The notes beneath the pieces are model-generated. The model searched no databases. It was given only the letters and a program-made list of their open reading frames with translations, and was not told the DNA's origin. Position numbers and translations under genes: made by a program. Source: Enterovibrio nigricans DSM 22720 (GTDB lineage: Bacteria > Pseudomonadota > Gammaproteobacteria > Enterobacterales > Vibrionaceae). From it: DNA of 24,000 nucleotides. Positions 17,363-24,000 of the stretch are shown here, one piece after another; positions within the stretch are counted from its first letter, which is position 1, and every line of letters begins with the position of its first letter. The stretch is taken from assembly GCF_900167155.1 (NCBI RefSeq), contig NZ_FUXU01000018.1, positions 35,880 through 59,879 of the forward strand, given 5' to 3'.

Positions 17363-17932
17363 GTGAATATGATACGTTTAATACTAGGTATGATCATTGT
17401 GCTAATCGCAGGACCTGTCTATGCAGCTGGTGACCTGGATAAGAACGATTTCGATTATGAATATCTAAAGGACGACGCTGCTATTGGGCAATCAAATGAA
17501 GCTATTTTTGCTTTTGGTTTGGGGCTACATAGAATCAAGGCTGGCGAAGCTTTAGGAGCATATGTGTCGGGAATTTCACCTATAGCCAATAGCGATTACG
17601 GTATCTTTGGTCGAGGAGAGATTATTAATGATAAATATAAAACTGGTCATTTCTGGTCTTGGAAAATGGCTGTTGGGATTGGCTATTATGTAGAAGATTA
17701 TCTGGTACCTTACGTTAACGTTAGTAAGTGCTTTTCGAACTATTCTACTTGCTATTTCAATAGTCGACACCCCACAGCGAACGATGATGATATCGATGCT
17801 ATATACTATGGATTAGGTAGTTTCTTTAAAGTTCCATACTTAGATAATAATTTAGAAATTTCTATCGACTGGAGCCCATATAAAGGTTATGACGGTGCTT
17901 CGCTATATTTAGGCTATGGAATTTCATTTTAG
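17363..17932 (+). CDS. Small outer-membrane beta-barrel-like protein (function unknown)
   Basis: The first gene of the AT-rich island. It has a signal peptide (MIRLILGMIIVLIAGPVYA-AG). The sequence is rich in alternating aromatic and Gly residues and ends in ...LYLGYGISF, a C-terminal Phe typical of OMP barrels. The likely start is the ATG at 17369 (AAGGTG just upstream); the track starts at the GTG at 17363. Confidence 0.55.
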   Translation: MNMIRLILGMIIVLIAGPVYAAGDLDKNDFDYEYLKDDAAIGQSNEAIFAFGLGLHRIKAGEALGAYVSGISPIANSDYGIFGRGEIINDKYKTGHFWSWKMAVGIGYYVEDYLVPYVNVSKCFSNYSTCYFNSRHPTANDDDIDAIYYGLGSFFKVPYLDNNLEISIDWSPYKGYDGASLYLGYGISF

Positions 17933-17953
17933 ATTTTAAAGGGTGTCTTTTAT

Positions 17954-19276
17954 ATGAATTTTAACTCTATCATTACTTTACTTTTATTCACCTCATTTGG
18001 AGTGGTTGCTTCAGATAGGAGTGAAGATATTGACAATATAAATAAGCTTATTTCAGAGTCAATAAGATACTCGTATAAAGTCAATAGTATTCAGCAGGAA
18101 ATATTTTCAAGTGAGCAGCTATATGATGCAGCAAAATATTATTATGTTCCTTCAGCCACTATATCATCGGAAGTCAAGCAGAAATTCGACAGGCCAGGAC
18201 ATCCTAGTACACCGTTGACCGATTTTTCGCTCACTCTTGAAGCCAATTTGAAGCTTTGGAGTAACACAACAGATGATGATAATAAATCATCGTATTATAA
18301 ACTTCAGTCAGACAAGTATCGATATAATGCAGCAATACTGGATGTATACAAAACAATCAACTCCAATTTGATCAAAATAGAATTGTCTAGACAATTACTA
18401 TTTAAATCTAATGAGTATAAGAATCAAATGGGGCAGCTTATTCTAAAAATGGAAAAAGGTGCTAATACCGGAGTTTTAAAAAAATCGGATAGATTGTTTG
18501 CTGATGTGACAATGAAAAAGTTTGAAGAGTCCATATACAATGCACAATCTAAAGTTGAAGGTTATAAAAATGAAATAAATAACGTCACATCTAGAAATCT
18601 GTACAATGATGGATATAAAATTCCAAATAGCTATGTAGATAAACATCTTAATTTATCTGATGAGATGTTTGAAATAAACAATGTTATAAAAAACAATTTT
18701 GATATTTCTTCGCGAAAATATCAGATTGATAGCGATAAGTACGCGGTTGAAGCGACAAATGAAAATTTCCTTGTGGAAATTGTGACAAAACATGAAATTA
18801 ATGAAAATGAACTTAGTAATAAAAAAGGGAGTGATAATACTCCGATTGACGGTTATACATACGATTCTGATGGAAACTCATATATAGGATTGAAACTAAC
18901 TTTCACGGGGTTGAATTTTGGTAGTTTTAAAAATAAAGAAAGTGAAAAGCATTTACTAACCAAAAAGATGATTGATACTGATGAGTTCATTCATCAAAAA
19001 TATGTCGATCTTAAAACCTATGAACAACAGTATTACCTGGTTAGAGATAGAGTTGATAATATTGGTGTACAAATAGAATTGACAAAAAAAGTGATCGTTC
19101 AGCTTATGAAGGAAATAGGTGTTGACGAGTCAAATGCTTTAGACTTGTTTAGAAATATTTCTTCATTGTCTGACTTGGAGTCTTCTCAGTTACTTGCTGA
19201 GATAGAGTTGCTGGATATCGTTATGAATGTTAAACAACTCAATGCTGACATTCCGAGGGATTATGTTATCAAGTAA
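17954..19276 (+). CDS. TolC-like outer-membrane factor (OEP family) of a type I secretion system
   Basis: 440 aa with a signal peptide (LLLFTSFGVVA-SD). It shows long helical/coiled segments alternating with short beta segments, in two pseudo-repeats. It sits directly upstream of, and overlaps, a HlyD-family gene. The family call comes from architecture and context, not from an alignment. Confidence 0.65.
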   Translation: MNFNSIITLLLFTSFGVVASDRSEDIDNINKLISESIRYSYKVNSIQQEIFSSEQLYDAAKYYYVPSATISSEVKQKFDRPGHPSTPLTDFSLTLEANLKLWSNTTDDDNKSSYYKLQSDKYRYNAAILDVYKTINSNLIKIELSRQLLFKSNEYKNQMGQLILKMEKGANTGVLKKSDRLFADVTMKKFEESIYNAQSKVEGYKNEINNVTSRNLYNDGYKIPNSYVDKHLNLSDEMFEINNVIKNNFDISSRKYQIDSDKYAVEATNENFLVEIVTKHEINENELSNKKGSDNTPIDGYTYDSDGNSYIGLKLTFTGLNFGSFKNKESEKHLLTKKMIDTDEFIHQKYVDLKTYEQQYYLVRDRVDNIGVQIELTKKVIVQLMKEIGVDESNALDLFRNISSLSDLESSQLLAEIELLDIVMNVKQLNADIPRDYVIK

Positions 19277-22378: not shown

Positions 22379-22426
22379 AAATACGGTTTTCAATACTTGG
22401 ACAAGAAATTATATTAAAGGTTTATT

Positions 22427-24000
22427 ATGAAAAAGTTTGAAGCGGTCGACATTAAAGATATTGTTGTTTCTGGTCTTGATATAAAAATCAAACAGCCAGA
22501 TGGTATGTTTGTAACTATTGAAAATGGTATTTCAGATTTACTTAAAAATAACATCGAAATTGTGGGTTCTGATGGTGTTAGTTTCACTAAAAACCAAATA
22601 ATAAGTAAAGTTAATCTTGAAGGATCTTCGGCCGTATTGGTTCCTGATTTGTTGGCTAGCAGTGAAACGGGCCTATCAGGTAAGGTTGAAAAAGTAAATA
22701 CTGCTCCTGAACCTACTACAGAAAATGAACTGAAAAAATTGGAGAGTCAGTTAGCTGAACTTAAAAAGCTACGTGAAGAGATCGAACGGCTTAAAAAAGA
22801 GCAAGAGCAAGAGCAAGAGCAAGAGCAAGAAAATACTTCTTCTTATGAAGCTGTTGTCAATGAAGATGTAAGCTTAATTAATGAATTAGTTAATCAACTA
22901 TCTGAAACCATAGCTGCAGCACTGTCAGGTACTGGCGAAGGCAACGCACAAGAGCAACTTATCGCCGAAAACAATGCTAATACCAGTAAAAATAAAACTA
23001 ATAACGTTGCCACTTCAACTGATTCAGGAAGCGGTTCGTCTAATCAAACCCCGCAAGAACAAAATACTAATAACGAAAGAAACAATGACTTATTTCTAAA
23101 AGTTGATCTGGCAACTAGTTCTGATAGTGGGAAAAAGAATGATTTTATTACCAATGTAAATACACCTACTTTTATTGGTTCTTCGATCACCGGCGCTACT
23201 ATTACCGCAACTATTGCTGGTGTTACTAATTCAGTAGTTGTTGATGCTCAAGGGTCATTTACACTAACACTTCCCTACTCATTGGCTGATGGGAATTATA
23301 ACGTTTCGTTTGTAGCTACAGATATTTTAGGTGCGAAAGAAACTATCAATAAATTACTTGTAATAGATACAGTTGCACCTTCGGTTGAGTTCTCACTAAA
23401 AACAGATTCTGGGTTGTCTGAAAATGACAATATAACGAACATAAAAACCCCGACAATTATTGGTAAGGTGTCTGGAGACCCTGTTAGTATAACGTTAACT
23501 ATTAATTCTGTTGACTATGCTATTCCAGCAGAAAATGGAAATTTCTCATTTACTGTTCCTGAAGAATTAAGCGATGGTGTATATGACGTTAAAGTTATAG
23601 CTGAAGATGAAGCTGGAAATAAAACGGAAATCATCAAACCAATAACTATTGATACTATAAACAATTTCTCAGTTGATCTTTCTCAATCGAGTGATACTGG
23701 CATTACTGGTGATTGGGTAACGAATAATACTAAACCTATTTTACGTATTGAGCACGAAAAAGACTCCTCTTTGCGTTTTTTCATAAATGGAGTTCAACTT
23801 GATATTCAACTTGGAAGTGAATCACCTTCATATTATGAATTACCTAATGTTTTAACAGATGGAACCTATAATTTAGAGTTCATTTCTACTGATCTGGCTG
23901 GAAATAAAGTTACTATAAATGAAACACTCATTATTGATACAGTTCCACCTAACTTTAGCCTAGACGGGATTTCCGATAAATCAAATAGCGGCGACAAATC
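22427..24000 (+). CDS. Giant repetitive Ig-like-domain adhesin, probable type I secretion substrate (only the N-terminal 524 aa; the ORF is open at the window end)
   Basis: I translated this by hand and it is not in the supplied ORF track. The ATG at 22427 has AAGG 6 nt upstream, and there is no stop through 24000. The order is a beta-rich N-domain (MKKFEAVDIKDIVVSGLDIKIKQPDGMFVTIENG), then a coiled coil with (EQ)5, then an Asn/Ser/Thr-rich linker. At least 3 tandem Ig-like repeats of about 94-97 aa follow (DSG..ND.ITN..TPT.IG ... L.DG.Y.V.....D.AGNK......IDT..P). Confidence 0.85.
   Translation, partial: MKKFEAVDIKDIVVSGLDIKIKQPDGMFVTIENGISDLLKNNIEIVGSDGVSFTKNQIISKVNLEGSSAVLVPDLLASSETGLSGKVEKVNTAPEPTTENELKKLESQLAELKKLREEIERLKKEQEQEQEQEQENTSSYEAVVNEDVSLINELVNQLSETIAAALSGTGEGNAQEQLIAENNANTSKNKTNNVATSTDSGSGSSNQTPQEQNTNNERNNDLFLKVDLATSSDSGKKNDFITNVNTPTFIGSSITGATITATIAGVTNSVVVDAQGSFTLTLPYSLADGNYNVSFVATDILGAKETINKLLVIDTVAPSVEFSLKTDSGLSENDNITNIKTPTIIGKVSGDPVSITLTINSVDYAIPAENGNFSFTVPEELSDGVYDVKVIAEDEAGNKTEIIKPITIDTINNFSVDLSQSSDTGITGDWVTNNTKPILRIEHEKDSSLRFFINGVQLDIQLGSESPSYYELPNVLTDGTYNLEFISTDLAGNKVTINETLIIDTVPPNFSLDGISDKSNSGDK
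22799..22828 (+). repeat. In-frame hexanucleotide repeat (GAGCAA)x5 encoding (EQ)5
   Basis: Read directly. It lies at the C-terminal end of the predicted coiled coil of the adhesin. Confidence 0.9.
23087..24000 (+). repeat. Tandem, diverged coding repeats of about 282-291 bp (bacterial Ig-like adhesin domains)
   Basis: The D-S/T-G anchor codons recur at 23123, 23405 and 23693, giving periods of 282 and 288 nt. Each unit ends in (L/I)xIDT(V/I)xP. A fourth unit begins at about 23952 and runs off the window. Confidence 0.75.

Follow-up and report, generated by a model that had tools for sequence, protein, structure and literature searches.

The closest described counterpart of the locus analysed here is Salmonella pathogenicity island 4 (SPI-4), described with only six open reading frames (ORFs; PMC12607715). 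SPI-4 already provides an example of a type I secretion system (T1SS) for an adhesin that carries a MotAB-like accessory unit, SiiAB. This unit conducts protons in a manner dependent on Asp13; retention of the giant adhesin SiiE goes up with the proton-motive force (PMF) and is collapsed by carbonyl cyanide m-chlorophenyl hydrazone (CCCP); and adhesion requires SiiA and SiiB, whereas secretion into the supernatant proceeds without them (bioRxiv 10.1101/641415; PMC6272769; PMC12607715). SiiB interacts with the ATP-binding cassette (ABC) protein SiiF, and an interaction between SiiA and SiiB is also known (PMC12607715). SiiAB has so far been treated as specific to Salmonella, and the role of the PMF there is unexplained (bioRxiv 10.1101/641415; PMC12607715). 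We compared with SPI-4 an AT-rich island that occupies positions 17363-24000 of a 24,000-nucleotide stretch of the 46% GC chromosome of Enterovibrio nigricans (DSM 22720; hereafter the window) and consists of one tightly packed operon of seven genes, A to G. An earlier note, made from the sequence alone, had proposed that the island encodes a giant-adhesin T1SS resembling SPI-4 and carrying a stator pair of its own, and this proposal survived direct comparison with SiiA, SiiB, SiiD and SiiE. We consider it likely that the island specifies an SPI-4-type T1SS for a SiiE-like giant adhesin, with a SiiAB-like unit formed by proteins E and F. The homologies, invariant residues, conserved synteny and EAL-domain fusions reported below were obtained by computation.

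Canonical Sii proteins were recovered from metagenome contigs by a scan with a siiA primer taken from the supplement of bioRxiv 10.1101/641415. One contig holds ssb-siiA (L026) and another siiA-siiB-siiC-siiD with the start of siiE (L027); the siiA, siiB, siiC and siiD products have 210, 462, 439 and 425 aa. The pairwise comparison that the earlier note had called for joined F to SiiB (BLASTP, 32% identity over 90 aa, E-value 3.7e-6), C to SiiD (24% identity over 430 aa, E-value 8.6e-13) and G to SiiE residues 30-548 (27.6% identity over 537 aa, E-value 5e-35). The G alignment is colinear and spans the beta-sheet, coiled-coil and first Ig repeats, bearing out the suggestion that the adhesin N-terminus is built like that of SiiE: G has a beta-rich head, a heptad coiled coil that includes an (EQ)5 run, and then Big_13 repeats, three of which are visible (Pfam 2.3e-51; NCBIfam Ca_tandemer 2.3e-18). 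Taken with the E-SiiA comparison described below, these alignments indicate that the locus is a homologue of SPI-4, beyond a mere analogue. Both lie on AT-rich acquired islands and both include a TolC-like outer-membrane factor (OMF). The Enterovibrio version is nevertheless rearranged and expanded, as the earlier note had put it: the order is A-OMF-periplasmic adaptor (membrane fusion protein, MFP)-D-E-F-adhesin rather than siiA-B-C-D-E-F, and the two extra proteins are a conserved subunit, D, and a secreted protein, A. E has 153 aa, compared with the 210 of SiiA, and F has 334, compared with the 462 of SiiB, with a shorter tail and cytoplasmic loop. Identity to SPI-4 is low: about 32-37% in F, where it is confined to two transmembrane (TM) helices, and about 24-28% in the MFP and adhesin. 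A search of 5.8 billion proteins with the F-family profile did not retrieve SiiB.

The family alignment of F (alignment A4) contains two invariant helices, SVxVSLGLVGTFxGL and MSFAFxTSILGV, which are the last two TM helices (shorter invariant cores GLxGTFxGL and AFxTSIxGV) and in which T86, T132 and S133 are invariant. On these motifs, the two helices carry the signature of the pore-lining helices of the MotA/ExbB/TolQ superfamily. In a like-for-like hmmsearch, the F profile scored 39.8 bits against SiiB (E-value 2.3e-13), 24.8 against a genuine ZorA (1.1e-8), 6.9 against MotA (0.003), 4.7 against ExbB (0.015) and 2.8 against TolQ (0.055). Alignment by hhalign likewise joined F 74-155 to SiiB 123-213 (probability 95.3%, E-value 2.1e-8, 37% identity, 82 columns). 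Comparison of the F profile with single E. coli TolQ, ExbB and MotA sequences by hhalign was not significant (E-values 0.02-0.045), with the right motif aligned for TolQ and MotA; F GLVGTF, for example, was placed on TolQ GLFGTV. PADLOC ZorA profiles, described there as MotA/ExbB/TolQ, matched the TM domain in 16/16 genome-derived F members (best 1.2e-10), and no other profile did; NCBIfam ZorA_2 matched F at 1e-4, and SiiB itself matches ZorA1 at 2.7e-5. The AlphaFold (AF2) model of F (mean predicted local distance difference test score, pLDDT, 77) shows four TM helices followed by a helical tail of about 170 residues. F thus shares the architecture of the SiiB family, with two N-terminal TM helices, a conserved TM pair, a long helical tail and a place in a T1SS/adhesin operon beside a SiiA-like gene, to which it is translationally coupled with a 2-nt gap. 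We assign F to the MotA/ExbB superfamily, as a protein of SiiB/ZorA type. The ordering SiiB > ZorA >> MotA/ExbB/TolQ suggests an evolutionary tie between T1SS accessory stators and the Zorya motor. Searches of PDB sequences were less informative: the full-length F profile gave only spurious tail matches to designed coiled coils and methyl-accepting chemotaxis proteins, which we discarded, and the profile trimmed to the TM domain gave one weak ZorA-like match (8vvn, E-value 3.9). The ZorA used above was itself caught in the F-motif scan, in a Myxococcota metagenome-assembled genome (MAG; locus L020, 2328-4274; PADLOC ZorA1 7.7e-17).

E has the features of the partner subunit. Its family motif is LAPxVDxL, with P, V, D and L invariant (alignment A3), and the intramembrane aspartate, Asp14 (Asp18 if numbered from the GTG start), is present in 15/15 locus sequences and 15/15 database homologues; it aligns with the aspartate of SiiA FVD(13)TFS and with TolR Asp23. 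The description of E as a single-TM, MotB-like protein with a membrane-embedded aspartate therefore stood in that respect, with Asp14 invariant and aligned to SiiA Asp13. The acidic N-terminus is also common to E and SiiA. The E profile matched SiiA at 0.0012, the periplasmic-domain part reaching 0.073 by sequence only, and gave nothing significant against PDB sequences or Pfam. An AlphaFold model of E, built on homologues from a representative-protein search, had an overall pLDDT of 82.7, with values above 90 in the periplasmic domain, whose topology, b0-b1-a1-b2-a2-b3-b4, is the order described for the SiiA periplasmic domain (SiiA-PD; bioRxiv 10.1101/641415). When this model was compared by Foldseek with 350,542 PDB chains, the top match was 6qvp, SiiA-PD (E-value 5.9e-3, probability 0.99, template-modelling score 0.48-0.52). 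Likeness to other B-type subunits was faint: Pfam ExbD in 2/15 members, ZorB in PADLOC (0.007), and hhalign alignments that placed the periplasmic domain on ExbD 62-130 (E-value 0.14) and the aspartate on TolR Asp23 (0.43). An ExbD-like assignment of the periplasmic domain, based on its secondary-structure pattern, was dropped, as SiiA-PD led the Foldseek list and ExbD/TolR structures were not in the top 50. A search of 1.84 billion cluster representatives found only 18 that belong to the E family at an E-value of 1e-3 or better.

The third conserved membrane protein of the operon, D, was found in all 18 informative loci and is conserved throughout the family. Its alignment (A5) has seven invariant residues, M1, G3, F4, C83, G86, N101 and C130. 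The TM helix of D resembles that of E (hhalign probability 94%, E-value 1.6e-7), the D profile matches the SiiA TM helix (4.5e-5), and Gly, Ser or Ala stands at the position of the E aspartate. D is therefore probably an Asp-less paralogue of E and SiiA in its TM helix; we stop at probably because similarity between TM helices can be inflated by shared hydrophobic composition. No match to D was found in Pfam, PDB sequences or PADLOC, the last of which returned only the ZorA-like matches of F and the faint ZorB-like match of E.

Relatives of the unit were collected by scanning one genome per species with the conserved F motifs, which gave 18 loci. In these loci and on plasmids, genes of the D, E and F families are accompanied by genes for OMF, MFP, ABC exporter and Big_13 adhesin, a linkage that holds in about 20 loci altogether; the ABC exporter gene belongs to the cluster in 8 related loci and in the plasmid versions. 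The gene order of the window recurs in Enterovibrio, Grimontia, Aliivibrio and Vibrio, and a circularly permuted form, adhesin-ABC-A-B-C-D-E-F, is found in a MAG (L004). A more distant Vibrio type has OMF-MFP-D-E-F followed by ABC (L008) or adhesin (L009), or with the adhesin upstream (L011, L012). The enterobacterial type is E-F-OMF-MFP-D-ABC, usually with a divergent upstream adhesin gene (Providencia, Salmonella arizonae/diarizonae); in Buttiauxella (L019), E-F-OMF was detected with the adhesin downstream, and no MFP, D or ABC gene within the fetched locus. Chance adjacency is ruled out because D, E and F are interleaved with T1SS genes in different orders. The plasmid-borne module is present in 57 plasmid records from E. 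coli, E. fergusonii and Salmonella, in the order E-F-TolC-HlyD-D-ABC with an Ig-like substrate. On the IncFIB plasmid pATCC10720 (L021, 9070-20159) the whole system takes about 11 kb, including a 1,592-aa Ig-like substrate, and on an IncX1 plasmid of S. Kentucky (L022) it lies at 13525-19694 and 2926-6564. The family ranges over Vibrionaceae, Providencia, Edwardsiella, Buttiauxella, non-enterica Salmonella subspecies and IncF/IncX plasmids of E. coli and Salmonella. Every D, E and F homologue bears the annotation "hypothetical protein", and none of the papers in the library searched links SiiB to these genera or to ZorA, consistent with the suggestion that the family is uncharacterised.

Some of these loci deserve separate mention. 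In Salmonella enterica subsp. diarizonae and arizonae (L017 and L018, 1-15829), a chromosomal E-F-OMF-MFP-D-ABC set is accompanied by a divergent adhesin gene of more than 3,100 aa and, downstream, an AraC-type regulator gene. A 2025 survey of Salmonella T1SS reported "recombinant", divergent siiE or SPI-4-like clusters in these two subspecies, with the MotA-like genes unmentioned. The flank of this locus, checked for the SPI-4 site, matched only IS3 sequences in E. coli. On pATCC10720, an AIDA-I autotransporter gene adjoins the module.

The coiled coil of F is followed by a C-terminal EAL domain in four loci and in one database sequence (P0036), with Pfam matches of 1e-55 to 1e-62. L008 has near-canonical catalytic motifs, whereas those of the other fusions are partly degenerate (ESY for EAL, DNFGTG, ADGVE). 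Both plasmids that were examined (L021, L022) also have stand-alone EAL genes no more than about 8 kb from the module. The fusion of an EAL domain to the F tail suggests an input of cyclic di-GMP (c-di-GMP) into the stator-like unit. F of the window has no EAL domain, no EAL gene was present among the ten large ORFs scanned in window 1-12.5 kb, and no EAL match is on record for the draft-called genes between 12.5 kb and the operon. Lap-type systems (LapD/LapG, c-di-GMP) are similar in that a giant repeat adhesin is held in its T1SS by an N-terminal module and an EAL domain is linked to control. They differ from the present locus, which has no gene for a LapG-like protease or a LapD-like HAMP-GGDEF-EAL protein in or beside the operon of the window and in which control would run through a stator-like unit in place of proteolysis. 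In L008, a PAS-GGDEF-EAL gene (9296-10999, - strand) adjoins the ABC exporter gene of that system.

Table 1 Features of the Enterovibrio nigricans island, with EAL-fused F proteins of related loci. Coordinates refer to the window or, for the fusions, to the named locus.
Feature	Position	Strand	Properties and evidence
A, 189 aa	17363..17932	+	N-terminal signal peptide; C-terminal ...YGISF; orthologues in 6 loci
B, 440 aa, TolC-like OMF (SiiC role)	17954..19276	+	Pfam OEP 1.3e-9; conserved in 18 loci
C, 422 aa, HlyD-type periplasmic adaptor, SiiD homologue	19227..20495	+	HlyD_3 4e-8; TIGR01843 type_I_hlyD 3.8e-28
D, 142 aa, bitopic inner-membrane protein	20489..20917	+	TM helix from residue 1 (MxGFxxAxS); two invariant periplasmic Cys
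E, 153 aa, SiiA-like stator B subunit	20910..21371	+	Probable start ATG 20910 (GTG ORF start 20898); acidic N-terminus, one TM helix, short periplasmic domain
F, 334 aa, SiiB-like stator A subunit	21374..22378	+	Probable start ATG 21374 (ORF from 21362); four TM helices, ~170-aa C-terminal coiled-coil tail
G, giant Ca-binding Ig-repeat adhesin	22427..beyond 24000	+	N-terminal 524 aa visible; Big_13, Ca_tandemer
Decayed IS3-family element	15828..16800	-	orfB fragments and orfA remnant with internal stops; ORF translations, sequence, GC drop
F-EAL fusion, L008	4650-6422		Pfam EAL
F-EAL fusion, L009	10001-11803		Pfam EAL
F-EAL fusion, L011	10001-11959		Pfam EAL
F-EAL fusion, L012	9989-11974		Pfam EAL

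The remaining parts of the operon were largely recognised by the domain searches that the earlier note had recommended, with OEP matching B, HlyD families matching C and Big_13 matching G. In a public draft contig, G extends at least 1,900 residues further. A gave no match in Pfam, NCBIfam or PDB-sequence searches; it ends in a C-terminal aromatic residue and is a putative small outer-membrane beta-barrel. In the synteny map of the loci, A is restricted to close Vibrionaceae versions of the system. The (EQ)5 run of the G coiled coil is encoded by a perfect hexanucleotide tandem repeat, (AAGAGC) x 5.7, at window 22797-22830; the tract is in-frame and slippage-prone and could alter the length of the coiled coil.

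Several results weigh against reading the island as a working SPI-4-type system with a SiiAB-like unit. F fell below the Pfam MotA_ExbB gathering threshold (PF01618, 22.9 bits), scoring 14.6 bits over its full length and 19.3 when restricted to the N-terminal 166 aa, and MotA_ExbB was the top family for 16/17 F homologues and sub-threshold in all of them. The earlier note had tied its proposal to a significant MotA_ExbB match of the 334-aa protein, and, taken literally, this puts it at risk, as 19.3 bits is the best F score; membership of the superfamily is upheld through ZorA-type profiles and SiiB and is not upheld through the PF01618 threshold. The Foldseek matches of the F model were mostly ZorA, PomA, ExbB, TolQ and MotA chains, all at E-values of 0.07 or above. 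Those of the E model fell short of 0.001, and with an E-value of 5.9e-3 we count the match to SiiA-PD as strong support, not proof. Moreover, E has no OmpA or MotB Pfam match, so that its MotB-like character stands on the TM aspartate and on SiiA-PD as top structural match and fails on the OmpA/MotB signature. E also lacks the disordered linker of SiiA, its helix ending near residue 60 and its domain starting near residue 70 in the model, and the canonical peptidoglycan-binding arginines (SiiA Arg162/Arg167) are not conserved in the E family, where one conserved Lys may align with SiiA Arg162 in a weak alignment. With no conserved Arg, no linker and a length shorter than that of SiiA, peptidoglycan binding by E is doubtful. 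An ABC exporter gene is absent from the 24-kb window. Finally, in the public draft of the species (GCA_002835505.1, contig PIYP01000012.1; L001, 8318-10462 and 11521-17270), C is broken into three ORFs, E is cut to 95 aa and G is split.

These last two points, with the degraded IS3 element at the left edge, would also fit a decaying, non-functional remnant, the more so as the ABC gene of some relatives directly precedes A (L004) or follows F (L008). We regard decay as improbable. In the window, each of the seven ORFs is undisrupted and closely coupled to its neighbours, and the draft, which is 99.93% identical, departs from the window by only 7 indels in 13 kb. Indels of this number are typical of homopolymer errors, and the frameshifts in GCA_002835505.1 are therefore probably errors of assembly or sequencing, with decay in that strain as the alternative. 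By analogy with SPI-4 and with the circularly permuted order of L004, we expect the ABC gene to follow G; the draft contig stops inside the adhesin repeats and reaches neither an ABC gene nor the adhesin C-terminus. Even less credible, in our estimation, is that E and F, with D, constitute a Zorya-like anti-phage module that merely sits beside a T1SS/adhesin operon. ZorA profiles are the only curated profiles that F matches significantly (1e-8 to 1e-10 for the TM domain), the F tail is a C-terminal coiled coil like that of ZorA, and E has its faint match to ZorB. However, no ZorC, ZorD, ZorE or other effector gene was found with PADLOC, Pfam or NCBIfam, A, B, C and G having only T1SS/adhesin assignments or none in the latter two, E lacks the signature of the ZorB peptidoglycan-binding domain, and the F tail, at about 170 aa, is much shorter than the long tail of ZorA in the anti-phage 5:2 motor ZorAB. 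The genes overlap T1SS genes in one operon, are interleaved with them in enterobacteria (E-F-OMF-MFP-D-ABC), and keep the T1SS/adhesin linkage in about 20 loci. We rejected a defence module on this gene content and interleaved synteny, and F also prefers SiiB over ZorA.

The presence of three conserved inner-membrane proteins rather than two raises another possibility, that D, E and F form a Ton/Tol-like three-component transducer in which E and F are an ExbBD/TolQR-like motor and D is the TonB/TolA-like output. D would then power an outer-membrane step, for example the opening or plugging of the OMF or the A barrel, and the unit would not act on the ABC exporter or on retention. The parts list is that of ExbB-ExbD-TonB and TolQ-TolR-TolA, with a polytopic GLxGT/TxxG protein, a bitopic protein with a TM aspartate and a bitopic partner; D has the expected N-terminal TM helix and periplasmic domain, and E is of ExbD/TolR size and retains weak similarity to both. 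Such a transducer nonetheless seems unlikely. The periplasmic part of D has about 110 residues and no Pro-rich spanning segment, so D should be unable to cross the periplasm as TonB or TolA does, and it has no TonB/TolA-like C-terminal domain; its TM helix resembles those of E and SiiA, not those of TonB or TolA. F resembles SiiB and ZorA far more than it does ExbB and TolQ, and the E model finds SiiA-PD best, ahead of any ExbD or TolR structure. The evidence is thus more consistent with an SPI-4-type system in which E and F form a SiiAB-like unit and D is an additional subunit of it.

For such an SPI-4-type system, the following mechanism may be envisaged. B, C and the ABC exporter encoded outside the window would form a trans-envelope conduit, through which G would be threaded C-terminus first until its N-terminal beta/coiled-coil region lodged in the OMF-MFP-ABC machinery, leaving the Ig-repeat stalk displayed on the surface. 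By likeness to MotAB, ExbBD and ZorAB units, we infer a pentamer of F around two B-type TM helices, that is, a 5:2 stoichiometry, and use of the PMF by E and F. Protons would pass by Asp14 of E and Thr86/Thr132 of F, among the Thr/Ser residues of its last two helices, and drive a conformational or rotary cycle that would control retention versus release of the adhesin rather than bulk export, as reported for SiiAB. The output would probably be delivered through contact of the cytoplasmic coiled-coil tail of F with the ABC exporter and, by way of the SiiA-like periplasmic domain of E, to the cell wall or the adaptor. D, as a family-specific third subunit, might take one of the two B positions or dock on the F ring and link it to the MFP or ABC protein; a coupling role of the latter kind fits the position of the D gene between the MFP and ABC genes in enterobacteria. 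In those relatives in which an EAL domain is fused to the end of the F tail, the unit may be under c-di-GMP control.

C-terminal coiled-coil tails in F, SiiB and ZorA, together with the match of SiiB to ZorA1, hint at a common lineage of "tailed" stators. We tentatively suggest, as a possibility to be held lightly, that SiiB, the F family and ZorA form one such clade and that D-E-F is a three-component, c-di-GMP-gated, PMF-driven rotary device within a T1SS. As part of the same proposal, an E/D heterodimer bearing one aspartate might occupy the B position, or D might couple the ring to the MFP and ABC proteins, and the pentameric tail, rotating against the ABC exporter, might hold or release the N-terminal plug of the adhesin. 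If this were true, the family would offer the first tractable and widespread model for the role of the PMF in SiiAB-type retention and would link the origin of Zorya to secretion-system accessories, and the 11-kb plasmid versions of E. coli and Salmonella would ease its study.

These comparisons place the SiiAB arrangement of Salmonella in a wider, unnamed and unannotated family that extends over Vibrionaceae, Enterobacterales and plasmids. What is new relative to SPI-4 is that a third subunit is conserved, that the SiiA-like subunit is minimal and that some relatives have EAL-fused tails. D and the F-EAL fusions make three ideas testable, namely the partner of the motor, its gating by c-di-GMP and a heteromeric B pair, and the family as a whole gives new handles on the role of the PMF in SiiAB-type systems. 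Convenient experimental models would be offered by short plasmid systems such as that of pATCC10720, with its 1,592-aa substrate.

The gene order given in the earlier note (OMF, MFP, 142-aa protein, Asp-bearing single-TM protein, 334-aa protein and adhesin) agrees with the ORF list and translations, in which all seven ORFs run in the same direction, with intergenic distances of -50 to +48 nt. The window scan found no terminator-like site on the + strand between operon genes, and the number of promoter and terminator sites in the window was not above chance expectation. The AT-rich character of the island was also confirmed, the GC profile of the window falling from about 0.46 to 0.30-0.36 from about 16.5 kb to the window end, and the "Vibrio-like" host guessed from the sequence proved right, given the 99.93% identity to the E. 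nigricans contig. The degraded IS3 element marks the left boundary between the 46% GC chromosome and the AT-rich island, whose GC content is 31-35%. Outside the island, the window contains ordinary chromosomal genes. Directly upstream of the IS3 remnant, at 11188-15056 on the - strand, lies a yhfT / DUF2620 / yhfZ-like cluster that is unrelated to the island (YhfT match 1e-129; HTH_41/YhfZ_C regulator). The window opens, at 1-2205, with the 3' part of tolB, followed by pal (OmpA family) and cpoB/ybgF (TolA_bind_tri), after which come nadA, a gene for an SBF transporter and dbpA. The host Tol-Pal genes are thus about 15 kb from the island, and the TolQR motor is presumably encoded just upstream of tolB.

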